From positions 1 to 26,180 of the IMG/VR virus record IMGVR_UViG_2698536580_000004: a DNA stretch of 26,180 nucleotides, one strand, 5' to 3'. Position numbers and translations under genes: made by a program. The notes below the pieces were generated by a model that worked only from the letters and a program-made list of their open reading frames with translations, was not told the DNA's origin and did no database searches. This stretch comes from a virus. Lineage: Duplodnaviria > Heunggongvirae > Uroviricota > Caudoviricetes. Shown piece by piece: positions 10,199-26,180 of this stretch (its first letter is position 1; every line of letters begins with the position of its first letter).

Positions 10199-11227
10199 AT
10201 GCAATTAAATGCGAAAGCCCGTGAGTTCCTGCTTCAGTATCACACCGGGCTGCGTGAATCCTACGGGGCGACCGACAGTGAACGCTGGTTTGCACTCACC
10301 GACCCCAAAGAAACCCAGCTGCGCAATGCGCTGATGGAGCAGTCTGATTTCCTGAATCTGATCACCGTTGCCGATGTCGATCAGCTGCAGGGGCAGGTGG
10401 TTCCGGTTGGCAGCTCTGGCCTGTATACCGGGCGTGTGCTGGATGGCCGCTTCCGTAAGAAAGTGGGCGTGAGTGGTAATGATTACAGTCTGGTCGAGAC
10501 TGACTCATGCGCCGCACTCACCTGGCAGTTGCTTTCTGTCTGGGCGAACGCCGGCGATGAAAACGAGTTTTTCCAGCGTGTTCAGGAGTTCACCAATCAG
10601 GCGTTTGCGCTGGATATGCTGCGTATCGGCTTTAACGGTACCAAAGTAGCCGAAACCACGAACGCGGAAACCAACCCGAACGGCGAGGATGTGAACAAGG
10701 GCTGGCATCAGATCGTCAAAGAGTGGAAGGACGGCCAGCAGATCATCACTGATGCGGTGGTGCTGGACGGTGACGGGAAAGGCGATTACGTGTCGCTGGA
10801 TGCAATGGCTTCCGATCTTATCAATACCAAAATCCCGGCACAGTACCGTAATGACCCGCGTCTGGTGGTTCTTGTCGGCGCTGACCTTGTGGCAGCTGAA
10901 TCTTTCCGCCTGTACCAGAAAGCGGATAAGCCGACCGAGAAGATTGCCGCACAGCTGCTGTCTGACAGTATCGCCGGCCGCACGGCTTACGTCCCGCCGT
11001 TTATGCCGGGCAAACGTATGATCGTCACCACGCTGCCGAACCTGCACATCTACACCCAGCGCGGCACGCGCCAGCGCAAGGCAGAGTTTGTGGAAGACCG
11101 TAAACAGTACGAAAACAAATACCTGCGTAACGAAGGTTATGCGGTTGAGTATCCGGAACTGTACGCCGCGTTTGATGAAAGTGCGGTAACTATCGGGGCA
11201 CCTGTCGCGCCTCCGGCAGGCGAGTAA
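10199..11227 (+). CDS. N: major capsid protein (P2 gpN-like)
   Basis: 342 aa, directly after the scaffold gene with an AAGGAAA SD; size and synteny match P2 gpN. Confidence 0.8.
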   Translation: MQLNAKAREFLLQYHTGLRESYGATDSERWFALTDPKETQLRNALMEQSDFLNLITVADVDQLQGQVVPVGSSGLYTGRVLDGRFRKKVGVSGNDYSLVETDSCAALTWQLLSVWANAGDENEFFQRVQEFTNQAFALDMLRIGFNGTKVAETTNAETNPNGEDVNKGWHQIVKEWKDGQQIITDAVVLDGDGKGDYVSLDAMASDLINTKIPAQYRNDPRLVVLVGADLVAAESFRLYQKADKPTEKIAAQLLSDSIAGRTAYVPPFMPGKRMIVTTLPNLHIYTQRGTRQRKAEFVEDRKQYENKYLRNEGYAVEYPELYAAFDESAVTIGAPVAPPAGE

Positions 11228-11237
11228 GGGGGATTTA

Positions 11238-11936
11238 ATGCAACTGTCACCGGCACAGCGCCACAGCGCACGAATTGAAGCGGAGCGGTTACTGCGACAG
11301 CAGCAGTCTCTGGACACGGAAACCAGCCTGCATATTCAGATTGTCGCGCTGGAGAAAGATGTCGTCGCAGCTGCAGCGATTGAAAGCCGCGCTGAGCGCA
11401 TGGAGTTTAAGCGTGATGTGCTGTTACCGCGCTGGATGCCGACCGCGCAATCCTGGCTGGAAGGTGACAGTGTGCAACAGAATCCTGTTTTTGCCTGGTG
11501 TGTCGTCTGGCTGTTTGATACAGGCCAGTTTGACCAGGCGCTGGACTGGGCGGATGTGGCAATCCAGCGGGGGCAGGAAACCCCGGCCGCGTTCGGCAGT
11601 ACGTTCCCGGTGTTTGTGGCGGATACGGTGTTGTCCTGGGCGGAAGCGGAAGCCGTACAGGGGCATGAAGTGGAGCCGTACTTCAGCCGTACGCTGGAAA
11701 ACGTGACGCAGCACTGGAATGTGTATGAGGTCATTAAGGCCAAATACCTGAAGTTTGCCGGTCTGCACCTGCTACGCGATGAAAACGGAGAGCCACGCGC
11801 AGCGGCAACGGAAGACAGGGAAGTATTGCTCCGGGCTAAGGAACTGCTGGAGCAGGCGAAGGGATTCGACCCTAAATGTGGTGTCGGCACGATGTTGCAG
11901 CGTATTGCTGCGCGTCTGCGGGCGCTGAAAAAATAG
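11238..11936 (+). CDS. M: terminase small (endonuclease) subunit (P2 gpM-like)
   Basis: 232 aa; position after the capsid gene and size match P2 gpM. Confidence 0.7.
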   Translation: MQLSPAQRHSARIEAERLLRQQQSLDTETSLHIQIVALEKDVVAAAAIESRAERMEFKRDVLLPRWMPTAQSWLEGDSVQQNPVFAWCVVWLFDTGQFDQALDWADVAIQRGQETPAAFGSTFPVFVADTVLSWAEAEAVQGHEVEPYFSRTLENVTQHWNVYEVIKAKYLKFAGLHLLRDENGEPRAAATEDREVLLRAKELLEQAKGFDPKCGVGTMLQRIAARLRALKK

Positions 11937-11952
11937 TCTACGGGAGTTTGAT

Positions 11953-12144
11953 ATGTCGTTTAAGCATGAGTTAGGCCAGGTTGTTGAAGTTTCCATTAGC
12001 GGCGAAGAGGGGCATATCAAAGCCCGTGCGGAGTACACCAACAGCTGCAATCAGTATCTGATCCACTATCAGACTGCTGACGGTCGCGCATCTGATGCGT
12101 GGTTTGAAGAAGGTGAGATTCAGGCCGCAAAACGCGGCGAGTAA
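11953..12144 (+). CDS. hypothetical 63-aa protein
   Basis: Short ORF with a GGGAG SD inserted between the small terminase and head completion genes; no motif recognised. Confidence 0.4.
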   Translation: MSFKHELGQVVEVSISGEEGHIKARAEYTNSCNQYLIHYQTADGRASDAWFEEGEIQAAKRGE

Positions 12145-12157
12145 GACTACCGACCCG

Positions 12158-12224
12158 AAAGCGGGCGCGGTGGAGGGGATCGCATAAGCGTATCGCCCGT
12201 GGAAACCGGCCAGCCCGCTTTTTT
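12158..12224 (+). terminator. structured element / possible attenuator or terminator before head completion gene
   Basis: GCGGGC (12161-12166) pairs with GCCCGC (12213-12218), followed by TTTTTT (12219-12224); the ~46-nt intervening GC-rich loop may fold further. Confidence 0.35.
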
Positions 12225-12237
12225 CCGGAGAAACAGG

Positions 12238-12690
12238 ATGTTCAGCGGAACTTCAATTGATTTTGACGATGCCACTCTGACGAATGATGGCTTCTGGCCT
12301 GACCTGAGCGTGAAGGATTTTCAGTCCCAGCGCACCATTCCGGCCGATATTGATGTGGCCACCATCCGCCAGGCACTGCTGACTGCAGCCGGCGAAATCA
12401 ATGATGATCTGGTCAGTGTGGCGGCAAGGTATCGCAATGCTGGCCATGAGCGCGCGGCGGACGTTCCGGGCGTGGAAATTGACGGCGAAAATCTGTTGTG
12501 CGCCCGTTATCGCAAAGCGGTATATGCACGTGCCAAAGCTGATTTGATGGGCGAATTTGCGTCTGTTGGTCGCCGTGAGAGCCATCCGGGGCAGGAAAGT
12601 GACGAAACCCGCTCCAGCCTGATTGCAGAGTCCACACTGGCAGTACGCCGCATCAAAGGGCTGAAACGCATTACGGTGGCCATGATATGA
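12238..12690 (+). CDS. L: head completion/stabilisation protein (P2 gpL-like)
   Basis: Track ORF starts at GTG 12199; ATG at 12238 (MFSGTSIDF) follows a GGAGAAACAGG SD; ~150 aa; position after small terminase. Confidence 0.6.
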   Translation: MFSGTSIDFDDATLTNDGFWPDLSVKDFQSQRTIPADIDVATIRQALLTAAGEINDDLVSVAARYRNAGHERAADVPGVEIDGENLLCARYRKAVYARAKADLMGEFASVGRRESHPGQESDETRSSLIAESTLAVRRIKGLKRITVAMI

Positions 12691-13169
12691 GCCAGTTAAC
12701 GGCATTAACCGATTTTCTCATTGCGAACATGCCCAGACGGGCAATGCAGGGATTTGACAGCCAGATGGACGAGATCGCGTTCATCCCGGCACAGCGGGAC
12801 ATCGGGCTGGGGCAGTACCGTATTGCCATCATCCGTTATAACGCCGTGCTGACGTGGGAGCGTTATCCCTACCGCGAGTACGATCCCAAAATCCTGATGG
12901 CTTTGTTTATGTCGTGGCTTTGCCAGGATGAGCGCACGCTCTTTGAGGAAACCGGCATTGACGCCGAGCTGCCGGAATTTGATATCGAAACCATCGACCA
13001 GGAAACCGCCATCATGGTGGTGACGCTGCCAATGGTGGAGGAACTTAATCTGGTTCCCGATCCCAAAGGCCAGATCCCGTTTGATGGCCAGCGCTGGAAG
13101 CTGGCAAACCCCGAAGTCTGGACGGCTGATGAGGTGACGGTGATTCCGGTCAGTGAGGGGCAGGAATGA
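12687..13169 (+). CDS. putative tail completion protein (gpR-like)
   Basis: 160 aa; ATGA overlap with the upstream gene; called by position between head completion and the morphogenesis gene. Confidence 0.4.
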   Translation: MSQLTALTDFLIANMPRRAMQGFDSQMDEIAFIPAQRDIGLGQYRIAIIRYNAVLTWERYPYREYDPKILMALFMSWLCQDERTLFEETGIDAELPEFDIETIDQETAIMVVTLPMVEELNLVPDPKGQIPFDGQRWKLANPEVWTADEVTVIPVSEGQE

Positions 13170-13870
13170 TAAATGGCGAGCTGAACAAGGAACAGTTCCG
13201 CCAGCTCCAGGAGGCGCTGAAAAAACTGGATTTACCTTCTGCGAAACGTCGCCGGCTGTTGTGGCGTATGGCGAAATACGGCGTGGAAGCTGCAGCAAAG
13301 CGTAATGTGCGCAATCAGCAGTCGCCGGAGGGTGATAAGTGGCAGGCGCGACAGACCCGGCGTAAAGGCAAAATGTTGCGCAATATGCCGAAACTGATCC
13401 GCATCCGGGAAATGCCTGAAACAGAGTCGGTCAGGCTGTATCTGGCCGGTGGTCATTACCGGAATGCGAAGGGAAATCTGCCCGCCGGCGTGGTGGGGTA
13501 TGTCCAGCAGAACGGCATGAGCGTGACCGTCAACCGTAAGCAGGTGGAAGGCCGTGAGCAGGGGGACAAGCCTGCATCACTGCGACAGGCGAAACGTCTG
13601 CGCAAGGCCGGGTATAAAGTCAGGCGCGGTAAGCGCTGGCGTAAGCCCGGTTATAAGGAAATACAGGAAAGGATGACCGCCAGACAGGTAGGTTTGCTTA
13701 TCCGGATACTGGAGGACAAACCGGTCAAAACGTCCTGGCAGATTGATTTACCTGCCAGGGCGTTTCTGGGGATAGGTCAGGATGATTTTAACAAAGCGCT
13801 GGCGCGACAGCTGCAGGCTATCGGGTTCGGCTGGGATGTTAACGCGCAGGATATCAGGGGGAGAGCATGA
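13166..13870 (+). CDS. virion morphogenesis / tail completion protein (gpS-like)
   Basis: 234 aa, basic; ATGA overlap; positional call only. Confidence 0.45.
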   Translation: MINGELNKEQFRQLQEALKKLDLPSAKRRRLLWRMAKYGVEAAAKRNVRNQQSPEGDKWQARQTRRKGKMLRNMPKLIRIREMPETESVRLYLAGGHYRNAKGNLPAGVVGYVQQNGMSVTVNRKQVEGREQGDKPASLRQAKRLRKAGYKVRRGKRWRKPGYKEIQERMTARQVGLLIRILEDKPVKTSWQIDLPARAFLGIGQDDFNKALARQLQAIGFGWDVNAQDIRGRA

Positions 13871-14994
13871 CCTGGCCAATTGTGACCGTAAACCAGGTAA
13901 ATCAGCTGCTGGGTGAAACCACGGAAGTGGAGCGCACGCTGCTGTTTATCGGCACGGGAACCAAAAATGTAGGTAAGACGCTGGCAGTTAACGCACAGAG
14001 TGATTTTGATGCGCTGCTGGGCGAGGGTGACAGCCCGTTAAAAAGTGATGTGCTGGCCGCACTGGCGAACGCCGGCCAGAACTGGTGGGGATTTGTTCAT
14101 GTGCTGGCCGCAGACAGCGAGCCGGGGGCATGGGTGGATGCCGTTAAGGCCGCACAGCTCTCCTGTTCGGTGGAAGGTGTGGTGCTGTCTGATGATGTGG
14201 CCGCGAAAGCGCAGATTAACCAGGCGGCAACGCTGCGATCTGAACTGATTGCTAAATACGGGCGCTGGGTGTGGTTCATTCTGGCGGTTCAGGGGATGCA
14301 GCAGGATGAAGCCCAGGCGGATTATCTGGTGCGTCTGTCCACTCTTCAGGAAGGTATTGCGGAAAAAGCGGTACAGCTGGTACCCCGTCTCTGGGGGAAT
14401 GAACCGGGCGTGCTGGCTGGTCGTCTCTGCAACCGTGCTGTCACCATCGCCGACAGTCCGGCGCGGGTGAAAACAGGCGCGTTGCTGAGCATGGGCAGTG
14501 ATGAACTGCCGAAAGACGGTGCCGGCGAAACGCTGGAACTGGCGACCCTTCAGGCGCTGGAGGCACAGCGCTACAGCGTGCCGATGTGGTATCCGGACTA
14601 TGACGGCTTTTACTGGGCTGACGGGCGCACGCTGGACGTTGAGGGCGGCGATTACCAGTCCATTGAGACGCTGCGTATTGTGGATAAGGCAGCACGCCGC
14701 GTCCGTCTGCTGGCCATCGGTAAGATTGCCGATCGCTCACTTAACAGTACACCGGGCAGTATTGCCGCACACCAGACGCTGTTTGCCCGTCCGCTGCGGG
14801 AAATGTCCACTGCGGCCAGCATTAACGGCGTGTCATTTCCGGGCGAGGTGAAACCTCCACAGGACGGTGACGTGACCATTGTCTGGAAGAACAAAAAGGC
14901 GGTGGATATTTACATTGTGGTGCGTACGTATGAAGTACCGCTGCAGATCACCATCAGTCTGTTACTGGATGCAAGTCTGGAGGCCAGCGCATGA
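13867..14994 (+). CDS. putative contractile tail sheath protein
   Basis: 375 aa, largest structural ORF directly upstream of a ~150-aa tube-sized gene in a tail with baseplate J-like and fibre genes; positional inference. Confidence 0.45.
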   Translation: MTWPIVTVNQVNQLLGETTEVERTLLFIGTGTKNVGKTLAVNAQSDFDALLGEGDSPLKSDVLAALANAGQNWWGFVHVLAADSEPGAWVDAVKAAQLSCSVEGVVLSDDVAAKAQINQAATLRSELIAKYGRWVWFILAVQGMQQDEAQADYLVRLSTLQEGIAEKAVQLVPRLWGNEPGVLAGRLCNRAVTIADSPARVKTGALLSMGSDELPKDGAGETLELATLQALEAQRYSVPMWYPDYDGFYWADGRTLDVEGGDYQSIETLRIVDKAARRVRLLAIGKIADRSLNSTPGSIAAHQTLFARPLREMSTAASINGVSFPGEVKPPQDGDVTIVWKNKKAVDIYIVVRTYEVPLQITISLLLDASLEASA

Positions 14995-15446
14995 CCAAAC
15001 GTATTTCAGGGATGTCCTTTGATATCTATCTGGACGGTGACCTGATCCACATTGAAAAAATTTCGCTGGATATTACCGATAACAGCGCCGCCGCACAGAC
15101 GCGCGGTGTTCCTGACGGGTATGTGGACGGTGACGTTGCCGCCGAGGGTGAAATTGAAGTCAGCTCCAAAGTGCTGCAGGTTCTGACAGCCAAAGCCCGT
15201 TCAGCGGGGTCATGGCGTGGCATTCCTCCGGTTGACTTCCTTTTTTACGCCAAAGCCGGCAGCGAAGAAATGAAAGTGGAAACCTTTGGTAACAAGCTGC
15301 AGCTCAACAGCGTTCTGGATGGTGATCCGAAGGGTGGCAGTGTGTCCACGCATAAAATCAAATACTTCGTGACAAGTCCGAAGTTCGTCAACATCAACGG
15401 TGTGCCGTATCTGGAAGCGGAAGCCACGGAAAACCTGATTGGATAA
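14991..15446 (+). CDS. putative tail tube protein
   Basis: 151 aa, ATGA-coupled to the putative sheath gene; positional inference. Confidence 0.45.
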   Translation: MTKRISGMSFDIYLDGDLIHIEKISLDITDNSAAAQTRGVPDGYVDGDVAAEGEIEVSSKVLQVLTAKARSAGSWRGIPPVDFLFYAKAGSEEMKVETFGNKLQLNSVLDGDPKGGSVSTHKIKYFVTSPKFVNINGVPYLEAEATENLIG

Positions 15447-15458
15447 GAGGCAGCAGGG

Positions 15459-15755
15459 ATGCAGGAGTACGAAAAGGGGTTCATTGCACTGGCAGTCATG
15501 GGGGCGCTGATTGCGCTGGGTAAATTGCTTAACAGTGATGAACCGATCACCCTTCGTCTGGTGGCGGGGCGTGTCATTGTGGGCAGCGGGCTGTCACTGA
15601 TTGCCGGGGTGGCGCTGTACTTTGTCCCGGATATTCACCCGCTCGCATTAGCCGGATTTGGCTCTGCGCTGGGTATCCTGGGGCAGAATGCGGTGGAAGC
15701 CTGGCTGCGTAAGCGGGGTTTTACAGGGATTTTTGATAAAGGGACAGGGAAATGA
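15459..15755 (+). CDS. holin (three predicted TM segments, charged C-terminus)
   Basis: 98 aa with hydrophobic segments FIALAVMGALIALGKLL, VIVGSGLSLIAGVALYFV, LALAGFGSALGILG and basic tail RKRGF; immediately upstream of the endolysin. Confidence 0.6.
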   Translation: MQEYEKGFIALAVMGALIALGKLLNSDEPITLRLVAGRVIVGSGLSLIAGVALYFVPDIHPLALAGFGSALGILGQNAVEAWLRKRGFTGIFDKGTGK

Positions 15756-16093
15756 CTCTGAGCGAAAAACAGCAACTCTTTACCGTTATGGTGGCAAATC
15801 TGATCCAGTGGGCTGAAGAACATGGCTACCGGCTGACGTTTGGTGAGGCTTACCGTACCCCGGAACAGGCTGCACTGAACGCGAAAAAAGGCAGCGGCAT
15901 TTCCAGCAGTCTGCACACGCAACGTCTGGCCGTGGACTTCAATCTGTTCATTAATGGCCAGTATCAGACCGACAGCGCGGCGTATCTGCCGCTGGGTGAA
16001 TACTGGGAATCGCTGGGTGGTTCATGGGGCGGTCGCTTCAAATCCCGCCCTGATGGTAATCATTTCAGCCTGGAACATAACGGGGTGCGCTGA
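15752..16093 (+). CDS. endolysin, M15-family zinc peptidase (L-Ala-D-Glu peptidase type)
   Basis: 113 aa; SLHTQRLAVD (H-x6-D) plus downstream DGNHFSLEH fit the His-Asp-His zinc site of M15 peptidases; ATGA overlap with the holin. Confidence 0.7.
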   Translation: MTLSEKQQLFTVMVANLIQWAEEHGYRLTFGEAYRTPEQAALNAKKGSGISSSLHTQRLAVDFNLFINGQYQTDSAAYLPLGEYWESLGGSWGGRFKSRPDGNHFSLEHNGVR

Positions 16094-16425
16094 TGGATCG
16101 CGTCGTGTCAGGCTGGTTATTCACTCTTGCTCTGGCATTTATAGCCGGCTGGAAAACGGCCGGCTGGCAGCGGGACAGTGTTGATCTGACTGTCTCAAAA
16201 GCGGTCACCGCGACCGGGGAACAACTGGCTGAAATTGCCGGTTCATCCGGTCGCCGGCTGGAAGACAAACTGGAGGCACTGAAAAATGCGCCACCGCGTG
16301 AAATCCGCACGGAAGTGGTTAAGCCGGTATTTACTAATAAGTGTCTGTCTGATGACTTTGTCCGCATGTACAACGACGCCGTCACCAGTACCGAACGTAC
16401 GTTATCAGGAAAACCTGAAAACTAA
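16093..16425 (+). CDS. i-spanin (Rz-like)
   Basis: 110 aa, N-terminal TM segment (WLFTLALAFIAGW) then a charged periplasmic region; start overlaps the endolysin stop (TGATG). Confidence 0.6.
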   Translation: MDRVVSGWLFTLALAFIAGWKTAGWQRDSVDLTVSKAVTATGEQLAEIAGSSGRRLEDKLEALKNAPPREIRTEVVKPVFTNKCLSDDFVRMYNDAVTSTERTLSGKPEN

Positions 16426-16585
16426 ATGCGCCACGCAGCTGCCGCGCCTGAGTGGAACGCAGGGAAAAGATGCGGCGGAATTACTGACACTTTATCTGGA
16501 GTTATACGGGCAGTGTGCTGCACGGCATAACGCACTTGTTGATGAAATTAATTTAAGAGAGAACGTTATTTATGGAAAAAATTAA
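16286..16585 (+). CDS. o-spanin lipoprotein (Rz1-like), out-of-frame overlap with i-spanin
   Basis: Different frame starting inside the i-spanin gene; signal peptide ending in lipobox LSAC (Cys codon 16367-16369) then Pro-rich TTTPSPVP; extends past the i-spanin stop. Confidence 0.55.
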   Translation: MRHRVKSARKWLSRYLLISVCLMTLSACTTTPSPVPNVRYQENLKTKCATQLPRLSGTQGKDAAELLTLYLELYGQCAARHNALVDEINLRENVIYGKN

Positions 16586-16829
16586 TCTGGTTGTATGCAA
16601 AAAAGAAATCACCTTTGAACCGAATCAGACTGCTTATAATAAGTTCATCAACGAAATGGCGATGGATAATAAAGTGGCACCTGCACACAATTATCTTGTG
16701 CGCATTGTGTCTGCTGAAAGTAAAGAGGCGCTGGAAGATATTCTGAAACGTCCGGGCGCAGCGCTCCAGCTTGCCGGGAAAGTGAATGAGCTTTATGCGC
16801 CAGAACTGGAAATTGAAGTAAAAAACTGA
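16572..16829 (+). CDS. tail assembly chaperone (short form)
   Basis: 85-aa AT-rich ORF directly upstream of the tape measure gene; ends with slippery A_AAA_AAC next to its stop. Confidence 0.55.
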   Translation: MEKINLVVCKKEITFEPNQTAYNKFINEMAMDNKVAPAHNYLVRIVSAESKEALEDILKRPGAALQLAGKVNELYAPELEIEVKN

Positions 16830-17020
16830 CAAAACGAGTCCGGGCAATTGAACAGAACGGACTCGAACAGTATTTAATTTTACGTCGCCATTATTTACCA
16901 CACGGTCAGGATTCCGTGGATGATATTTCCGCTGCCATCTGGCTGGATAATCGCCACTGGGAAAATATGCGAATAGCGGTTGCTAACGGAATCAGCACTG
17001 CATTTAAAGGCACGGAATGA
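16572..17020 (+). CDS. tail assembly chaperone, -1 frameshift-extended form (shift at 16820-16826)
   Basis: After a -1 slip on A_AAA_AAC the frame from 16826 is open for 64 codons (LTKRVRAIEQNG...AFKGTE) and stops at TGA 17018-17020, overlapping the tape measure ATG 17017. Confidence 0.5.
16820..16826 (+). other. candidate -1 programmed ribosomal frameshift slippery heptamer A_AAA_AAC
   Basis: X_XXY_YYZ heptamer directly before the chaperone stop codon; the -1 frame is open to the tape measure start. Confidence 0.5.
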
Positions 17021-18984
17021 AACAGTTAGATTTTACATTAAGCCTGATTGATAAGCTGACGCGCCCGTTAAAACAGGCGCAGGGCAGCGTCACCGGCTTT
17101 GCGGAAAAATCAAAAGCGGCCTTTTCGCAGATTGGCGGCGGCGTGCTGGGGCTGGCCGGTACGGGGATGGCCATAAAAGGCGCGTTATCGCCGGCTATCG
17201 AAATGTACGACGCGCTGAATGATGCCGCCGCAAAAGGGATTGATAATCAGGCATTAAAGACCGTACAGCGTGACGCGCTCCGGTTCAGCATGACCTACGG
17301 TGCCAGCGCGGTGGAGTTCGTCAAATCCACAGAGAACATTAACGCTTCCATTGCCGGCCTTACCGCCAGCGAGCTGCCGAAAGTGACGAAGGTCGCTAAT
17401 ACGCTGGCGTTTGCCCTGAAATCCACATCCGCCGACACGGCGGAGTTCATGGGGCAGATGTACGGTAACTTTTCCGCCGATGCGGCGCGGCTGGGTAAAG
17501 TCCAGTTCGCCGAGCAACTGGCGGGAAAAATGGTGTATATGCGCAAGGTCTTCGGTACCGAAATGGGTACCATCAAAGACCTGATGGAAGGGGCGCGGGG
17601 TGTCGGGACTAACTACGGCGTCGGGCTGGATGAACAGCTGGCGGTGCTGGGACAGCTAAATCGTACGCTGGGGACAGAAGCCAGCAGCGCTTATGAAGGT
17701 TTCATGACCGGCGCGATGGAGGGAGCTAAAAAGCTGGGGCTGTCCTTCACGGACTCCACCGGCAAAATGCTGTCCATGCCTGAAATGCTGATCAAGCTGC
17801 AGGGCAAATACGGCAAAAGCCTGGAAGGGAACCTGAAAGCCCAGGCGGAGCTGGATGCGGCATTTGGTGACAGTTCAGCGGTGATAAAACACCTGTACGG
17901 CAATGTGGCGTTACTGCAGCGTAATATCACCGAACTGGGCGGCTCTGACGGGCTGAAGCGTACACAGGAGATGGCCGGGAAGCTGGTCAAGCCGTGGGAT
18001 CGCTTTGTACAAATCCTTAAAGCCATTCAGACGGTGATCGGACTGACGTTGATCCCGGTTCTGTACCCGGTACTGAACCGCCTGGCCGATATGGGGCAGA
18101 CGTTCGGCCGCTGGATGCAGATGTTTCCCAACATTGCGCGGGTGATTGGTTACGTGCAGCTTGCGCTGTTTGGCGTGGCGGCAGCGGGCGCGATGACAAA
18201 TATTGTCATGGGTGTCTCAAAATTTATCCTGGTGGGACTGAAGGGACTCTGGAGCGCCCTGACGCTGGTCACGAAGATTTACACGGCCACGGTCTGGGTT
18301 GCCTCAAAAGCTGTTGTGGCGTGGAACCTGACGCTGAAATTCCTGCGGGGTACGCTGCTGGCCGTGCGCATGGCGGCGATTATGGCCGGTATTGGCATCA
18401 ACCTGATGAGCTGGCCGGTTCTGCTGGTTATCGGGGCGATTGCTCTGCTGGCAGCCGGGTGTTATCTGCTGATTAAACACTGGGATGATGTGAAAGCGGC
18501 GGTGATGAATACGGCAGCGTTTACCGCCGTGGCTGGTGTGGTGGAATGGCTTGCCGGCCTGTTTTCCGCTGCGTGGCAATGGATCACGGACGGCTGGAAC
18601 AGCTTTATTGCGCTGCTGACCGGGTTTTCACCGTCACAGGCGCTAAGCGGCATGGCCAGCGGGATTGTCTCCCTGTTTGATAACGTCTGGCAGACCATCA
18701 AAGGCGGGTTCCTGAAATCGTGGAACTGGATTGTCGGAAAGCTCAATAAAATTCCGGGCGTCGATATTTCACTGGCGAACGAATCTCAACCGGCACTGAC
18801 AACGAATACCCTTTCTACTGGCGGTGAATTAAAAGGCGTTGATAAAGGCGGTATCAGTAAAACAATTAGCAGTAATTCTAAATCAGTAACGGATAACAGC
18901 CGTAAAATTGGTGAAGTGCATTTTCATACTAAAGAAGCGCTTTCACCCTCCCAGCTAATGGAATGGCAGGAGCTTAATGCGTGA
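17017..18984 (+). CDS. tail tape measure protein
   Basis: 655 aa, Ala/Gly-rich helical N-terminal part, several hydrophobic segments in the C-terminal half; directly downstream of the chaperone pair. Confidence 0.75.
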   Translation: MKQLDFTLSLIDKLTRPLKQAQGSVTGFAEKSKAAFSQIGGGVLGLAGTGMAIKGALSPAIEMYDALNDAAAKGIDNQALKTVQRDALRFSMTYGASAVEFVKSTENINASIAGLTASELPKVTKVANTLAFALKSTSADTAEFMGQMYGNFSADAARLGKVQFAEQLAGKMVYMRKVFGTEMGTIKDLMEGARGVGTNYGVGLDEQLAVLGQLNRTLGTEASSAYEGFMTGAMEGAKKLGLSFTDSTGKMLSMPEMLIKLQGKYGKSLEGNLKAQAELDAAFGDSSAVIKHLYGNVALLQRNITELGGSDGLKRTQEMAGKLVKPWDRFVQILKAIQTVIGLTLIPVLYPVLNRLADMGQTFGRWMQMFPNIARVIGYVQLALFGVAAAGAMTNIVMGVSKFILVGLKGLWSALTLVTKIYTATVWVASKAVVAWNLTLKFLRGTLLAVRMAAIMAGIGINLMSWPVLLVIGAIALLAAGCYLLIKHWDDVKAAVMNTAAFTAVAGVVEWLAGLFSAAWQWITDGWNSFIALLTGFSPSQALSGMASGIVSLFDNVWQTIKGGFLKSWNWIVGKLNKIPGVDISLANESQPALTTNTLSTGGELKGVDKGGISKTISSNSKSVTDNSRKIGEVHFHTKEALSPSQLMEWQELNA

Positions 18985-19310
18985 GTGGGATTCTCTATAT
19001 TGACCTGCTTATTGAGCATGGTGACTTCTCATTAAATGCCGGTAATGAGCCTGAATTATGCAATAACCGAAAAAGTATCGGGCAGGACATTATTCACGCC
19101 ATTATTGAGAGCGGATTAGCCACGCAATTAATTGCGGAACGCAGTCCGACACTGAGGGCAGATATTTTTACACAACTGGAATTACTGGTTGAAAACGATG
19201 AGCGCATTGTGCCGGGAACGGTGGAAATCAGTGAAGAAAGCCAGAAACGGCTGTGGGTGACCGCGAGCACATACGATTTTGGCACGCTTTCATATCAGGT
19301 GGACTTATGA
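18981..19310 (+). CDS. putative baseplate/tail protein (small)
   Basis: 109 aa; GTG start overlapping the tape measure stop (GTGA); AT-rich; no motif recognised. Confidence 0.4.
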   Translation: MSGILYIDLLIEHGDFSLNAGNEPELCNNRKSIGQDIIHAIIESGLATQLIAERSPTLRADIFTQLELLVENDERIVPGTVEISEESQKRLWVTASTYDFGTLSYQVDL

Positions 19311-20491
19311 CGGAAAAGCCCCAGGTTGATTTTGAAGAAGTGGTGAAAGCCGGCGGGATGCCGGTGACGGAATCTGAGGTTCGCGATCGCTTCAATGCGA
19401 TTGCAGCTGACGAGGGGATTATCACCAATACGTCCCGCATGTCACCGTTCTGGCGGTTAATCACCGCCATTGTGACCGCGCCAGTGATGTGGCTGAAAGA
19501 CGTTCTGGTGTTCACCGTGCTGGCCAATATGTTTGTGGCCACAGCCAGCGGGAGCATGTTGCGTCTGCTGGCGTGGGCGGTGAACGTCACGGCAAAACCG
19601 GCGAGCGCTGCACAGGGTGTGATCCGCTTCTTCAAAGAAGATGCAAAAGCTGTGGTGACGGTGAAAGCCGGGACGATTATCCAGACAGAGCGCATTAACG
19701 GCCGCGTGTATGAGCTGGCCACCAGTGAGGATGTGGTGATCGCTTCCGGTACGGCCAGCGCATTACTGCCGGTGAAAGCCACCGGCACCGGGGGCGCATA
19801 TAACCTTGCGCCGGGATATTACCGCATTCTGCCGGTTGCCGTTGACGGTATCAGCTACGTGACCAGCGAAGAAAACTGGCTGACCGTACCGGGCGCGGAT
19901 GAAGAAAGTGATGACGAGCTGCGCGAACGCTGCCGCAATCAGTTCAATCTGGTGGGGAATTACCACACTGACGCCGTTTACCGGTCGATGATTGCCGGCG
20001 TTGCAGGGCTGAGTATTGACCGGATTTTCTTTGAACATGAAGCGCCGAGGGGACCCGGTACCGCCAACGCGTATCTGTTGCTGGACAGCGGGGTGGCCTC
20101 TGCGCCTTTCGTGGATGCGGTGAATGACTATATCAACACGCAGGGACACCACGGGCATGGTGATGATATGCAGTGCTATTCCATGCCGGAAACGCTTCAC
20201 GATCTGGTCGTCACGGTTTATGTCAAAAATCTGAACAACTTCAGTGACGAAGAAGTGAAAACGCTGAAGGGCGGCATTGAAAACATGATCCGCTGTGCCT
20301 TTCGTGAGAATGCTGATTATGACGTCAGAAAGACGTGGCCATATTCACGGTTTTCCTTTTCTCAGCTGGGGCGGGAGATCCACAGGACATTTACTCAGAC
20401 GGAATCACTGTCTTTTTCGCTGGGTGATATCACCAGCGAACTGAGTGTGCCACGCCTGAAATCGTTAACGGTGGGTATTGAAAATGAGTGA
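19307..20491 (+). CDS. putative baseplate wedge protein (baseplate J-like)
   Basis: Track frame starts at 19253 but the ATG at 19307 (MTEKPQ) overlaps the upstream stop (ATGA); ~394 aa; precedes small tail protein, fibre and Tfa, the order seen in P2 J-I-H-G and e14-type modules. Confidence 0.45.
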   Translation: MTEKPQVDFEEVVKAGGMPVTESEVRDRFNAIAADEGIITNTSRMSPFWRLITAIVTAPVMWLKDVLVFTVLANMFVATASGSMLRLLAWAVNVTAKPASAAQGVIRFFKEDAKAVVTVKAGTIIQTERINGRVYELATSEDVVIASGTASALLPVKATGTGGAYNLAPGYYRILPVAVDGISYVTSEENWLTVPGADEESDDELRERCRNQFNLVGNYHTDAVYRSMIAGVAGLSIDRIFFEHEAPRGPGTANAYLLLDSGVASAPFVDAVNDYINTQGHHGHGDDMQCYSMPETLHDLVVTVYVKNLNNFSDEEVKTLKGGIENMIRCAFRENADYDVRKTWPYSRFSFSQLGREIHRTFTQTESLSFSLGDITSELSVPRLKSLTVGIENE

Positions 20492-21071
20492 GTTCCTGAA
20501 AAAGCTGGCCGGGATGGTGCTTCCTTCCTGGATGAACAAAGGGGAGCCGGCCAAGTTGCTGAAAACGGCGCGGCGGTTCTGGGCTGAGGTTTACGGCTGG
20601 GTAACGTGGCCAGTGAATCAGTTCGATCCGCTGACGTGTACGCCGGTATTACTGAACCTGCTGGCGTACGACCGCGACATTACCCGCTTTGACGGTGAAC
20701 CGCTGGCATTGTTCCGTAAGCGCGTGGCATATGCCTTTGTCAATGCGCGGGATGCCGGTTCCGTTGAGGGGTTTATCAACATCTTTGAACGGCTGGGAAT
20801 TGGGTACGTTGAGCTGCAGGAACGCCAGCCGGGGATTGACTGGGATGTGATTCTGGTTCGCGTGACAGACAGCCAGATTGCGGACAACACGCAGTTGCTG
20901 ATCCAGATAATTCGCCAGTACGGGCGAACATGTCGCCGTTATCAGTTTGAGGTGATCACGTCTGAAAGCCTGGCCATCCGGGCGGGATGGGATCAGGGAG
21001 AATATGTGGCGTATCCGGCAGCGTTAAACAGTACGGTAACAGACAGCGCGACGTTCAGCGCGGGTTTATAG
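20484..21071 (+). CDS. putative baseplate/tail protein (P2 gpI-like position)
   Basis: Track start 20478 is TTG; ATG at 20484 (MSEFLKK); ~195 aa; between the J-like gene and the tail fibre. Confidence 0.45.
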   Translation: MSEFLKKLAGMVLPSWMNKGEPAKLLKTARRFWAEVYGWVTWPVNQFDPLTCTPVLLNLLAYDRDITRFDGEPLALFRKRVAYAFVNARDAGSVEGFINIFERLGIGYVELQERQPGIDWDVILVRVTDSQIADNTQLLIQIIRQYGRTCRRYQFEVITSESLAIRAGWDQGEYVAYPAALNSTVTDSATFSAGL

Positions 21072-21080
21072 GGAGATTTT

Positions 21081-22658
21081 ATGTCACAGACAGCTATCAC
21101 ACTGGCATTTGAACAGTGGAAGGCGCTGCAGGGTGCCACTGGCGAGCCTGTCCTGCTGGACGAATTTGTTTTTGCGAACGTGCCGGGACTGAATCCAGAA
21201 CAACCCGTTGATCGCAGCGAGACACTGCCACCGGCCGCGCAGATTGTTCACCGGCAGGCAGTCAGCCGTAAAGGTGTGGTGAATGAAAATGCCGTGGTGC
21301 ACTCCGTTGTACTGGGTGCGGATGTGGGCGATTTTTCGTTTAACTGGATCGGCCTGATTAACAAGGCCAGCGGCACGCTGGCGATGATTGTTCATGCGCC
21401 TGTCCAGCAAAAGCTGAAAACTGCAGAAGGGCAGCAGGGGAATGTCCTGACCCGCTCTTTCCTGATGGAATACAACGGCGCACAGACAGAAACCGGCATC
21501 AATACGCCCGCTGAAACCTGGCAGATTGATTTTACTGCGCGTATGGCCGGAATGGATGAGCGCCAGCGCCTGGAAAATATGGATATCTATGGTGCGGCGG
21601 CGTTTTTTGGTAACGGGTATCTGGTAGCCAAAACCGGCAATCAGTTTTTTGTCACGAAAGGCACAGGTTATGTGGCTGGACTTCGTGCGTCACTGGCTGC
21701 GAACCAGAATATTACGGTGACGACAAAGCCGGTAAAAGTCTGGCTGGATGTGTGCTGGACGGGAACGCTGACCAGTGTCTGGAATGTGCAGAGCAAAATC
21801 ACGGTGGCTGCAAATCTTGCTGATTACGTTCAGAACGGGGTTCAGCATTATGTGTTTGCGGTGGCCAGCATTGATGCGGATGGCAACATCACGGATTTAC
21901 GGCCAAAAGGTAGCCTGGGAGAACAGCAGGCCAGCAGCGATTTTTTGCGTAAGGATGCAAACCTTGCTGATGTTAACGACAAAGCGAAAGCCAGAAAAAA
22001 TCTTGAACTGGGTGAACTGGCTGTTTTAAGCATTAGTGATGTTGTACCTGTTGGGGTGCCACTTCCCTGGCCGACAGATATCCCACCGGCGCGTCACGCA
22101 ATCATGCAGGGACAGGCATTTGATACAGTGGCTTGCCCGCAATTGGCTATTGCATACCCATCGGGTGTTCTTCCTGATATGCGCCGCCAGACAATCAAAG
22201 GGAAACCAGATGGCCGCGCAGTATTGTCCTGTGAAGATGATGGCAATAAATCCCATGCTCACACTGCCAGTGCATCCAGTACCGATCTGGGGACGAAATC
22301 GACATCCTCATTCGATTACGGTACCAAAACAGCCAGCACTTTTGATTATGGGACTAAAACGACGAATACAACGGGGGCACACGTACATTCTAGGAATTAT
22401 GGGGGAACTTACGTTGATTCAGGTAATAACACACAAAATCAGGTGCCACGTTGGGGATCTGCGTCTAACTCATCATCAGCCGGAAACCACGCTCACACAG
22501 TAGGAATTGGCGCGCACAATCACACCGTAGGTATCGGCGCTCATGCTCACACTGTAGCAATAGGCGCACACAGTCACACCATTACCGTCGCCGCGTCGGG
22601 TAACGCAGAAACGACCGTTAAGAATATTGCATTTAACTACATAGTGAGACTCGCATAA
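21081..22658 (+). CDS. tail fibre protein with C-terminal His-rich repeat tip
   Basis: 525 aa; GGGAG SD; Gly/Thr/Ser-rich shaft; repeats (S/T)xxFDYGTKT and four tandem 9-aa HxHT(V/I)xIGA repeats near the C-terminus; followed by a Tfa gene. Confidence 0.75.
22488..22595 (+). repeat. four tandem 27-nt repeats encoding HxHT(V/I)xIGA in the tail fibre gene
   Basis: cacgctcacacagtaggaattggcgcg / cacaatcacaccgtaggtatcggcgct / catgctcacactgtagcaataggcgca / cacagtcacaccattaccgtcgccgcg, in frame with the fibre ORF. Confidence 0.8.
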
Positions 22659-23245
22659 TGACTTTTAAAATGAGTGAAACCGATCAAACAGTTACTGTTT
22701 ATAACCTGCGTTCCGATACGAATGAATTTATTGGTGCGGGTGACGCTTTTATTCCTGCACATACCGGACTGCCAGCTAACTGCACCACGATAAAGCCACC
22801 GGCAATCAAAGCGGGATTTGTGGCGATTTTTGATTCAGAGAAGCAAAGATGGATTTCCCGTGAGGATCATCGTGGTGAGGTGGTGTTTTATACGGAAAAC
22901 GGTAATGAGCTGGAGATAACCGAGCCAGGCGCTTACCCGGAAGGGACTACCACGTCAGCACCGGCTAATGCCTGGCAAAAATGGAATGGTAAGGCGTGGG
23001 TGGATGATGCGGAGGCCATGCGAATTGCATTAGTCAGCGAGGCAGACGCCGAAAAGAAAAGACTGCTTAAACAGGCCAATGATGCCATTACCACATTGCA
23101 GGATGCCGTTGATTTAGACATGGCGACCGAAGAAGAAGCACTGCTGCTTACCGCATGGAAAAAATACCGCGTTTTACTGAATCGTATTCAACCGGAAGAT
23201 GCGCCGGAAATTGTGTGGCCGGAGGTGCCTGGAAATGTGGCGTGA
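22658..23245 (+). CDS. tail fibre assembly protein (Tfa)
   Basis: 195 aa; C-terminal LQDAVDLDMATEEEALLLTAWKKYRVLLNRIQPEDAPEIVWPEVP is a typical Tfa C-terminus; start overlaps the fibre stop (TAATG). Confidence 0.8.
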   Translation: MTFKMSETDQTVTVYNLRSDTNEFIGAGDAFIPAHTGLPANCTTIKPPAIKAGFVAIFDSEKQRWISREDHRGEVVFYTENGNELEITEPGAYPEGTTTSAPANAWQKWNGKAWVDDAEAMRIALVSEADAEKKRLLKQANDAITTLQDAVDLDMATEEEALLLTAWKKYRVLLNRIQPEDAPEIVWPEVPGNVA

Positions 23246-23960
23246 AGCACGTCTGGCCTTCACGGATTCTGTTGCTGCGCTGAACTGTTCTATCGTCCCT
23301 GCGCATCCGTGGATTTATGGGCTGGGACAGCAGACAGCGAACGGGGCATATCTCAGCCCGGTTAATGCTGTTCGCTATCTTGCTGAACGCCTGGCCGGAA
23401 CAGGGGGGAATGCGGACATGGTGATTATGATGGTCACCGGACAGACACAGGATAACTTCATGGCAAGCCTGAATAACCTGGTCGGGATTTTCCCCGCCCC
23501 GGCATTCACGCAGGTCAAACGGCTTGCGCAATCCGCCGCAGCGCTGGCTATTGAAAAGATGCAGATCCCTGCGAAAACCGCCGCTGCGTTACCTGCGCCC
23601 ATTCCGTTGTCTGTACCAACCAGCAGGGCAGCTTTATCTGCTGCGGCAATCAGCCAGGCACAAAAGGCGGCGGGTGCCGGGTTTGATATCGAAGGGCTGA
23701 AAAAACAGCTGGGCGAGTTCACGCAGCTGCGTGACCAGCTTATCAGTGATGTGGCCAGCGGACTGAATGATTTACAGGGGAAAAGTGCCAGAGCGTGGGT
23801 TTTTACTGCCAGCGGAGACACCGGCACCACGTTACTGGAACTGATGAAGGACATTCCGCAGCAGTCTGCCGTTTACACCGCTGCCATGATGCTGGTTGGC
23901 GATAATCTTGATGGAATAAAGGGAATGATTCATGACTGCGATCCCGACATTGGCGCTTAA
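23235..23960 (+). CDS. hypothetical Ala-rich protein of unknown function
   Basis: Track frame starts at 23199; ATG at 23235 (MWREARL) has GGAGG 9 nt upstream and overlaps the Tfa 3' end; ~241 aa; no motif recognised. Confidence 0.45.
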   Translation: MWREARLAFTDSVAALNCSIVPAHPWIYGLGQQTANGAYLSPVNAVRYLAERLAGTGGNADMVIMMVTGQTQDNFMASLNNLVGIFPAPAFTQVKRLAQSAAALAIEKMQIPAKTAAALPAPIPLSVPTSRAALSAAAISQAQKAAGAGFDIEGLKKQLGEFTQLRDQLISDVASGLNDLQGKSARAWVFTASGDTGTTLLELMKDIPQQSAVYTAAMMLVGDNLDGIKGMIHDCDPDIGA

Positions 23961-24477
23961 TGGCGAGGCCATCCAGCTGAAAAACATGCGGGTGACTGTT
24001 TCACAGCAGTTTCAGGATAAAGATCAGTCCGGCCAGACCAGCGCCACAACAAAATCAGAGCAGGGAGCAAAGGGAAAGGAACTGCGGATCAGCGGTGAAA
24101 TACCTTTTAAACAGTCTGAAATACTGAAGCGTATTTTTGAGCTGGCCAGTGCTACCGATGCCAGTGGTAATCGTCAGAAGTACCGCGTGGCGCATGAAGT
24201 TGCCCGTGCTGTTAATTTTCGTGAAGCAACGTTCAGCGGGATGCTGGATGCACCCCAGCAGGACGGGAAAATGTCCTGGCTGGTGACATTCACACTGGCG
24301 GAACATATCAGCGTGCAGGAAAAGCGAGAAGCCAGGGCAACAGGTAAGACGACCGCAAAAAAACAGACTGCCGGTAGTGCGGGACAGTCCGGTGGCCAGT
24401 CTGCCGGAGAGGATGAAGAAAAACTGACGTGGTTTGAACGCAAGGTGCTGAAGCCCGTCAATGATGCTTTGGGTTAA
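23932..24477 (+). CDS. hypothetical protein of unknown function (Lys-rich centre, Gly/Ser/Gln-rich C-terminal stretch)
   Basis: 181-aa ORF overlapping the upstream ORF by 29 nt; its stop overlaps the ATG of the hub/spike gene; no motif recognised. Confidence 0.45.
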   Translation: MTAIPTLALNGEAIQLKNMRVTVSQQFQDKDQSGQTSATTKSEQGAKGKELRISGEIPFKQSEILKRIFELASATDASGNRQKYRVAHEVARAVNFREATFSGMLDAPQQDGKMSWLVTFTLAEHISVQEKREARATGKTTAKKQTAGSAGQSGGQSAGEDEEKLTWFERKVLKPVNDALG

Positions 24478-26180
24478 TGATGAAACCAGTAAAACGCCTT
24501 TACCTTTCAACGGATGAAGTTCACCTGGTGGATGCCAGCCTGGTACTGGAGCTGAACAGCTGTGGCCGGGGCTTCATCACCGCAGAGACAACAACCGATT
24601 ACACCGGAAAACTGGTGCGGCTGGATGTGGGGTATACCGATCTGCTTTTGCGGTGGTTTACGGGGTATGTGGAGCGATCGCAGCCCGCTGAAAACGGTTT
24701 TCAGCGTCTGTTCATTCGTGAGCTGGTAGGTGTGTTTGAAAGGATGTGGCCATGTTCGTTTCAACACCCGACTTTGCGTGAAATTGCGGGCTGGCTGGAA
24801 GAAAACAGCGGGATCACGGTCAGTGTGCCTGATGCACAGTACAGCGATACCCCCATCCCACATTTTACCCATAACGGTACTGGTTATCAGTTGCTGAACA
24901 ATCTGGGCAGGGCGTTCAGTATCCTGGATTACATTTGGTACCAGTTGCCTGATGGTTCGCTTTACGTCGGCGGCGCAGAAAAGTCATTGTTTGCCGGTCG
25001 TTCCGTAGAAATCCCGTCAGAGTTCAGCCAGGGGGCTGCTGGCGGTAACTCTGTGACATTACCAGTGATCCAGACTATGCGGCCAGGGGTGGAGATGAAC
25101 GGTGAACGCGTGACTAAAGTTCACCTGACGAATGATACGATGGCGATCACATGGACGCCGAGAAACCGCGCAACGGGTAAACCTTTGCAGAAAACACCGG
25201 CGCAACGGCAGATTGAAAGCCATTACCCGGAACTGGCATCCGGGCTTCATTTGCCAAAGATGGCCAGAGTCGTGGCGCATTCAGAGCCGGTAAAAAGCGG
25301 TAACTTTGCCGATCCCTTCCGGCCACGTTACGCCGTGGACGTGCAGCTGCTTGACGCAGACGGAAATCCGGACAATCAGACGCCTGTTTATTCAGCGGTG
25401 CCGCTGCCGGTACCAATGGCCGGGTATGATTCAGGTATGTTTCAGTTTCCGCCAGAAGGGACGCTGGTTGAGGTTGCATTCACGGGAGGCAGACCGGATA
25501 AACCCTTTATCAGGCAGACGCTGCCGGATGGTACCAGCCTGCCGGACGTTAAACCCGGTGAGCAATTGCAGCAGCAGCGGGAAGAAGTATCCCTGAGGGT
25601 GACTCAGGCGGGTGACTGGGTAAGGCAGACCGATCAGACCATCAGCGAAACATCAATGGTGCGAACCGTGAAAGCCGATACAGAACAGCGCGAACTGGTC
25701 AGCCGTGAAACCACAGTGAAAGCCACGGATAAAACCACGGTACTGGGAACCGCCACACTGCTGGCCGGAGCCATCCAGCAGGTAAGCGCCGGTGATTATA
25801 GCCAGGCGGTGAAAGGTAACAGGCTGGCCAGTATTGAAGGAAACGAAGAAACGGACATAGCAGGACAGCAGTCCACTAAAGTGGGCGGAGCTGTAGCCGT
25901 GGAGGTTGGCGAAAGCCTGACAGAGAAGATTGCCGCACTGCGTAAATCAGTGGCCGCTGGCGGTCAGCAGGTCATGGGGACAACTGTCCATATTGGCAGT
26001 GAGAGTATCAATGCCCTGACCATGATGCTGGACACCATTGATTTGCTGGCAGAACTGGCAAGGCAGTGCGCCAGTCACTCACACCCCAGCGTTGGCACAC
26101 CGACCAATGCGTCATCATTTACTCAGACTGCTACGAAAGCCGGAGAAACCCGGAGCAAGTACCAGAATATTATCGCCTGA
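24477..26180 (+). CDS. baseplate central hub/spike protein (gpV/VgrG-like OB-fold and apex)
   Basis: 567 aa; GMFQFPPEGTLVEVAFTGGRPDKPFI matches the spike OB-fold signature (G..F.P..G.EV.V.F..GD...P.I); C-terminal CASHSHPSVGTPT resembles the HxH..G.T apex motif of gpV-type spikes. Confidence 0.55.
   Translation: MMKPVKRLYLSTDEVHLVDASLVLELNSCGRGFITAETTTDYTGKLVRLDVGYTDLLLRWFTGYVERSQPAENGFQRLFIRELVGVFERMWPCSFQHPTLREIAGWLEENSGITVSVPDAQYSDTPIPHFTHNGTGYQLLNNLGRAFSILDYIWYQLPDGSLYVGGAEKSLFAGRSVEIPSEFSQGAAGGNSVTLPVIQTMRPGVEMNGERVTKVHLTNDTMAITWTPRNRATGKPLQKTPAQRQIESHYPELASGLHLPKMARVVAHSEPVKSGNFADPFRPRYAVDVQLLDADGNPDNQTPVYSAVPLPVPMAGYDSGMFQFPPEGTLVEVAFTGGRPDKPFIRQTLPDGTSLPDVKPGEQLQQQREEVSLRVTQAGDWVRQTDQTISETSMVRTVKADTEQRELVSRETTVKATDKTTVLGTATLLAGAIQQVSAGDYSQAVKGNRLASIEGNEETDIAGQQSTKVGGAVAVEVGESLTEKIAALRKSVAAGGQQVMGTTVHIGSESINALTMMLDTIDLLAELARQCASHSHPSVGTPTNASSFTQTATKAGETRSKYQNIIA

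Follow-up and report, generated by a model that had tools for sequence, protein, structure and literature searches.

A predicted baseplate hub-spike fusion protein encoded by the last late gene of an HP1/ESSI-2-like prophage

What kind of tail protein is encoded by the final gene of this prophage, and does its position downstream of the tail fibre genes make the baseplate gene order unusual? The gene closes the window, i.e., the whole 26,180-nt stretch of DNA that was analysed: its 567-codon open frame begins with an ATG at 24477, in a TAATG whose TAA is the stop of the gene before it, and finishes with a TGA at 26178-26180, the window's final base. The original prediction took it for a baseplate hub/spike protein on the strength of two motifs. 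The frame spans 24477-26180 as predicted, and both motifs lie exactly where they had been placed, GMFQFPPEGTLVEVAFTGGRPDKPFI at residues 320-345 (nt 25434-25511) and HSHPSVGTPT at residues 534-543 (nt 26076-26105). The frame is not a chance one, because the protein has 1213 homologues with E<=1e-5 among the candidates scored in a word-indexed search, 713 matches among 50%-identity representatives, and a full-length match to the phrog_2258 family annotated as "baseplate protein" (E 4.5e-274, profile positions 1-544 of 544). We put the probability at about 90% that the protein is the central piece of the baseplate, a compact hub of the gp27/Mu gp44/P2 gpD type joined to a spike of the gp5/P2 gpV type. 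Its proposed layout is as follows.

24477..26180, + strand: putative fused baseplate hub-spike gene, 567 aa; orthologue of HP1 orf35 and K139 orf39; last gene of the late (tail) operon
24477..25166, + strand: predicted hub domain, residues ~1-230, compact gp27/Mu gp44/P2 gpD-type fold
25167..25256, + strand: linker with a short helix, residues ~231-260; hub/spike gene boundary in split relatives
25257..25526, + strand: predicted spike OB-fold domain, residues ~261-350, including the first of the two motifs
25563..26000, + strand: predicted triple-stranded beta-helix needle, residues ~363-508
26013..26177, + strand: C-terminal tip, residues 513-567, with helix, HSHPSVGTPT loop and helix (from alignment and model)

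The window covers nearly the whole of an HP1/ESSI-2-like (Peduoviridae) prophage, beginning within the integrase gene and closing with the last late gene. The integrase gene is followed by genes for an HTH repressor, cox and a primase-like replication protein; the portal and large terminase genes lie on the minus strand, and then come the gpO scaffold, a P2-type major capsid protein, the small terminase, gpL, gpR and gpS. The other features that the argument needs, together with one further early gene, are given here.

1-900, - strand: integrase, cut by the window edge
2003-2572, + strand: protein with an Rv2179c-like 3'-5' exoribonuclease domain, in the early region (Pfam, E 2.3e-68)
13867..18984, + strand: sheath, tube, lysis cassette, tail assembly chaperone and tape measure
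13867-14994, + strand: sheath, DUF2586, equivalent to HP1 orf23
14991-15446, + strand: tube, Pfam Phage_HP1_Orf24 (HP1 orf24)
15459-16425, + strand: lysis cassette (holin, M15 peptidase and small ORFs) between the tube and tail chaperone genes
17017-18984, + strand: tape measure
18981..23245, + strand: wedge and fibre block, comprising DUF2590 (orf28), Baseplate_J, P2-I-like, tail fibre and Tfa (Pfam)
21081-22658, + strand: tail fibre with Phage_tail_fib and Collar domains (Pfam)
23235..23960, + strand: orf33 homologue, 241 aa from the ATG at 23235, between Tfa and orf34 (phrog_1677, a family with no assigned function, E 9.4e-76)
23932..24477, + strand: orf34 homologue, 181 aa, tube fold (Pfam HP1_ORF34, E 8.6e-54); its stop overlaps the hub-spike start

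Several details of this neighbourhood deserve mention in their own right. The lysis cassette interrupts the tail genes, an arrangement also found in HP1 and K139. In the gap between the tail chaperone and tape measure genes (16829-17017, + strand), RefSeq annotates a tiny DUF6890 ORF in a near-identical prophage (1937-2020 there), which occupies the place expected for a P2 E/E'-type frameshift extension. The tail fibre (21081-22658, + strand) carries His-rich repeats at its C-terminal end that are reminiscent of the His-x-His repeats with which the tips of some phage fibres bind metal. For the orf33 homologue we adopted the start that RefSeq annotates in the near-identical prophage, the mechanically called ORF beginning at 23199; the protein has no Pfam or NCBIfam match, and NCBIfam gave no match for any of the seven tail proteins searched.

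Orthologues of the 567-aa protein occur along its full length in phages of diverse hosts. By tblastn, identity is 96-98% in the Escherichia phages ESSI2_ev015, 239, 129 and 040 (98% to ESSI2_ev015), 79% in Cronobacter phage ESSI-2, and 63-64% in Salmonella SI7 and Yersinia vB_YenM_324. HP1 orf35 (UniProt P51739) aligns with query residues 2-566 at 40% identity (E 7e-135) and HP2 orf35 at 41% (E ~1e-135), full-length matches were also obtained in Aeromonas phiO18P and Pasteurella F108, and Pseudomonas phi3 and Vibrio K139 orf39 remain alignable over the full length at 34%.

Other relatives carry the two halves as separate genes. In Vibrio phage PV94, gp46 (228 aa) aligns with residues 7-226 (E 3e-45) and gp47 (254 aa) with residues 243-495 (E 2e-37), each at 34% identity, and phrog_4011 matches residues 243-566 only. 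A hand count of the best 150 of the 713 representatives gave ~65 stand-alone spikes, many of which begin at query residue ~243, ~10 stand-alone hubs of ~230 aa, and ~14 fused proteins. Given the split PV94 genes, the range of phrog_4011 and these stand-alone forms, residues ~227-243 represent a natural gene boundary, and the junction of hub and spike thus appears as a natural site of fusion and fission inside one phage family. The PV94 hub and spike genes (11467-13667 in the PV94 record) are followed by a 65-aa ORF, gp48. We considered gp48 as a detached tip module and rejected it, since it has no evident similarity to residues 513-567.

The sequence evidence for a hub and a spike is weak yet consistent. 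The Pfam OB-domain family Phage_base_V matches residues 309-345 at E 7.5e-4, under its gathering cut-off, and is matched by 28 of the 63 family members; Gp5_C scores 22.3 bits against a sequence cut-off of 20.4 with no single domain passing, and Gp5_trimer_C is sub-threshold. Searched against the PDB with phmmer, residues 413-508 resemble the C-terminal beta-helix of T4 gp5 (gp5 residues 481-576, E 5e-7), and weak VgrG matches extend across the OB region; a family profile likewise matched VgrS/VgrG (E 3.5e-5 to 4e-4). Neither Pfam nor PHROGs placed a lysozyme or peptidase domain in the protein, which therefore is not a T4 gp5-type tail lysozyme. A lysozyme-spike reading was rejected on this ground, the likeness to gp5 being confined to the C-terminal beta-helix.

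The fold evidence is strong for both halves. An AlphaFold2 model built on an alignment of 63 sequences (38-97% identity), with the beta-helix and tip modelled as a monomer, has a mean pLDDT of 85.9, mostly >90 in the first 180 residues, and contains a five-strand barrel at residues 261-349. Its best whole-length Foldseek matches in the PDB are fused hub-spikes, namely AlgoCIS 7aef_q (E 2.8e-19) and VgrG 9jg9 (E 8.8e-19), and further whole-length matches include VgrG 8gra, AnaCIS 7b5h, PVC 9qgm and 6j0m, and Afp8 6rbk. The predicted structure, from which the assignment of the N-terminal ~230 aa as the hub is drawn, supports a hub fused to a spike, i.e., a VgrG architecture within a phage virion. 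The hub/spike claim of the original prediction is thereby upheld, its spike half by a gp5-like beta-helix and a sub-threshold OB domain as well as by fold, and its hub half by fold in place of any Pfam hub family. The resources searched, the PDB included, returned no experimental structure or genetics for any family member.

It is improbable, in our estimate, that the protein is a spike only (gpV/gp5-like), with an unrelated adaptor or cargo domain as its N-terminal 230 aa and the true hub encoded elsewhere, e.g., by orf33. This arrangement is favoured by the unusually small size of the N-terminal domain, by the fact that orf33 has no assigned function, and by searches at E<=0.01 in which none of the 63 members matched a Pfam hub family (Phage_GPD and similar). 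The negative hhalign comparison of the family alignment with P2 gpD (probability 0.4%; <1% for gpV) points the same way; its templates were single P2 gpD and gpV sequences, too weak for the purpose, and fold comparison was used instead. The orf33 homologue is missing from PV94 and thus probably does not belong to the baseplate core.

A second tail fibre, tailspike or receptor-binding protein encoded after the fibre genes was the outcome that would have overturned the hub/spike reading, and the position directly downstream of the fibre/Tfa module and the long beta-rich C-terminal region are what one would expect of it. We hold it to be very improbable: no fibre, collar or tailspike family was matched in Pfam or PHROGs, the strongest matches among tail and injection-system folds are all hubs or central spikes with no fibre among them, the sequence is conserved from Haemophilus to Vibrio hosts, unlike receptor-binding proteins, and the true fibre is the product of 21081-22658 with its Phage_tail_fib and Collar domains. 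A bacterial T6SS VgrG or an eCIS spike, as the best whole-length structural matches (VgrG, Afp8 and Pvc8) and the database name of one homologue ("Actin cross-linking toxin VgrG1") might suggest, is just as hard to credit, and T6SS VgrG proper was rejected, for a protein encoded among capsid, portal, terminase, lysis and integrase genes, with orthologues in the isolated phages HP1, K139, ESSI-2 and phiO18P and with no T6SS or eCIS genes within the window.

The product of orf34, just upstream, is probably the tube initiator or "ripcord" that links hub and tube, the role of P2 gpU and Mu gp43. It is encoded beside the hub gene, and its fold is tube-initiator/gpU-like, resembling P2 gpU, R2 PA0626 and the N-terminal domain of Mu gp43; searches of orf34 against the PDB by sequence, both single and profile, returned nothing meaningful. 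The PV94 homologue of orf34 (40% identity, E 1e-38) is misnamed "adenine glycosylase" in its record. On the model of contractile tails whose structures are solved, three copies of the 567-aa protein would form a hub-spike trimer, the orf34 tube-fold protein and the tail tube would sit atop it, and the wedges (DUF2590, J-like and I-like) would be assembled around it. When the sheath contracts, the needle would be pushed across the outer membrane of the host.

The C-terminal tip has its own character. H534 and H536 are invariant in the 63-sequence alignment, and in the AlphaFold2 model the helices at 513-533 and 545-563 flank the HSHPSVGTPT loop, so that the motif is not at the chain end and is followed by ~24 residues with a predicted helix. 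SHSHPSVGTPT resembles the C-terminus of P2 gpV, HTHKHPGDSGGTTGSP (gpV HTHKHPGD), and on this likeness an "apex-like" reading of the motif is plausible; the Pfam Apex family (PF18946) matched one of the 63 members (E 0.0026) and did not match the 567-aa protein itself. The His-x-His motif at the gpV C-terminus was reportedly found to bind iron by Browning et al. in 2012, and the tip may, by analogy, bind metal as well. We regard it as unlikely, though worth stating, that the family has a distinct apex in which the trimer forms a six-helix bundle ending in a His-x-His loop, in place of a gpV/gp138-type beta apex or a PAAR cap. Such a tip, together with the ~230-aa hub, would make this the most compact fused hub-spike known in phage and, given that the same family contains both fused and split forms, a possible model for fusion and splitting of the VgrG type.

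The end of the window at the stop codon had been taken to mean that the remaining tail genes were out of view. This expectation did not hold: the sheath, tube, chaperone and tape measure genes all lie upstream, and in E. coli EH09-18-41, which carries a ~96% identical prophage, no tail genes follow. There, a strong intrinsic terminator (GCCCGCATAATGCGGGC plus a T-run) is located 13 nt past the hub-spike stop (11194-11210 in that record), and beyond it come a minus-strand serine acetyltransferase gene (11705-12478) and then the host genes mntR, ybiR and ldtB. K139 has an annotated terminator at the same place. Because a terminator and host genes follow in the E. coli prophage and a terminator is annotated in K139, the inference of further tail genes beyond the window is wrong. 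The serine acetyltransferase gene, ~500 nt beyond the terminator and before mntR, could belong to the host or be a moron carried by the phage. In several IMG/VR viral contigs, the match to the hub-spike gene stops 3 nt short of the contig end; automated prophage calling may therefore cut at this last gene, and the end of the window at the stop codon would then be explained.

The gene order was also claimed to be permuted relative to P2 and Mu, with the hub/spike gene downstream of the J-like, I-like, fibre and Tfa genes. These four genes, and then two small ones, do lie upstream as described. The full order in the window, HP1 and K139 is sheath, tube, lysis, chaperone, TMP, DUF2590, J, I, fibre, Tfa, orf33, orf34 and hub-spike, whereas Mu has TMP, gp43, the gp44 hub, the gp45 spike, the gp46-48 wedge, the S fibre and the U Tfa, so that two blocks are swapped relative to Mu. 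P2 is organized as V W J I H G, then FI FII E E' T U D, and then ogr and attP; relative to it, the W-J-I-H-G block here stands after T and before U-D, with V joined to the D end. The permutation therefore stands against Mu and for the P2 spike gene V, but not for the P2 hub gene D, which is itself the last tail gene.

The order is also real across relatives and, for the same reason, not unusual. The hub-spike gene is the last detected tail gene in 82 of 82 related loci containing it (80 IMG/VR loci together with annotated phages and the E. coli prophage), a search that yielded close relatives only (>=75% identity), so that synteny at wider range rests on the annotation of HP1, K139 and PV94 and on positions within records. 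In the majority of complete phage records, no more than about 2 kb separates the gene from a record end. Across the HP1 branch the terminal position is standard, and it has already been described; the gene order itself has reportedly been public since the HP1 genome sequence of 1996. Vibrio phage XM1, known from cryo-EM, was considered as a solved relative and set aside, as its hub and spike are encoded separately and its order is the usual one, hub before wedge; its tail is thus not of the HP1 type.

The fusion, too, has precedent. HHpred analysis of an HP1-group phage indicated that HP1 fuses the homologues of gpD and gpV (PMC10612066, Viruses 2023); the equivalence of orf34 to gpU is flagged as uncertain in that paper. 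The hub-spike fusion of the HP1 branch of Peduoviridae is thus already described, the original prediction is correct in part and its subject ordinary, and the results raise no new biological question. Their value lies mainly in annotation. In most E. coli prophages, RefSeq lists the hub-spike protein and its two upstream neighbours as "hypothetical", and some phage records give the orf34 homologue the erroneous adenine glycosylase name; our analysis supports "baseplate hub-spike fusion protein" for the former and "tube initiator (gpU-like)" for the orf34 homologue. A common assumption about P2 is corrected as well: there, too, the tail genes end with D, which encodes the hub.

Compared with known systems, the one-chain arrangement of hub, OB domain and beta-helix is the one seen in T6SS VgrG and in the Afp8/Pvc8/Alg-type eCIS spikes (Foldseek E 1e-15 to 3e-19), from which the present protein differs in its phage virion context, its shorter hub, its lack of an effector domain and its low identity (10-15%); no PAAR gene was noticed among the annotated genes of the window. 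In Mu, the gp44 hub (379 aa, against ~230 aa here) and the gp45 spike are separate genes, directly preceded by TMP and gp43 and followed by those for wedge and fibre, whereas the fused gene described here comes after the fibre genes. P2 gpD and gpV, and PA0628 and PA0616 of the R2 pyocin, have the same two folds and presumably the same roles. In P2, the hub gene comes after that of the gpU-like tube-fold protein and closes the tail genes (T-U-D), as the hub follows orf34 here, and the His-x-His apex of gpV resembles the tip motif. The differences from P2 are a single polypeptide in place of two, a hub of ~230 aa compared with 387 aa in gpD with no detectable sequence similarity, a tip motif followed by an extra predicted helix where that of gpV is at the chain end, and wedge and fibre genes located between TMP and the hub block rather than upstream of the sheath gene. 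PV94 (Vulnificusvirus/Catalunyavirus-type) likewise has its hub and spike at the genome end after an orf34 homologue, but as two genes, with a different spike C-terminus and without the orf33 and Tfa genes. The closest counterpart is the family of HP1 orf35, K139 orf39, HP2 orf35 and ESSI-2, whose members share the length class and the terminal late-operon place after the orf33 and orf34 homologues. There is no substantive difference from this family, the fibre and Tfa differing as host range would predict, and the 567-aa gene is another member of the HP1 orf35 family, in an enterobacterial prophage.
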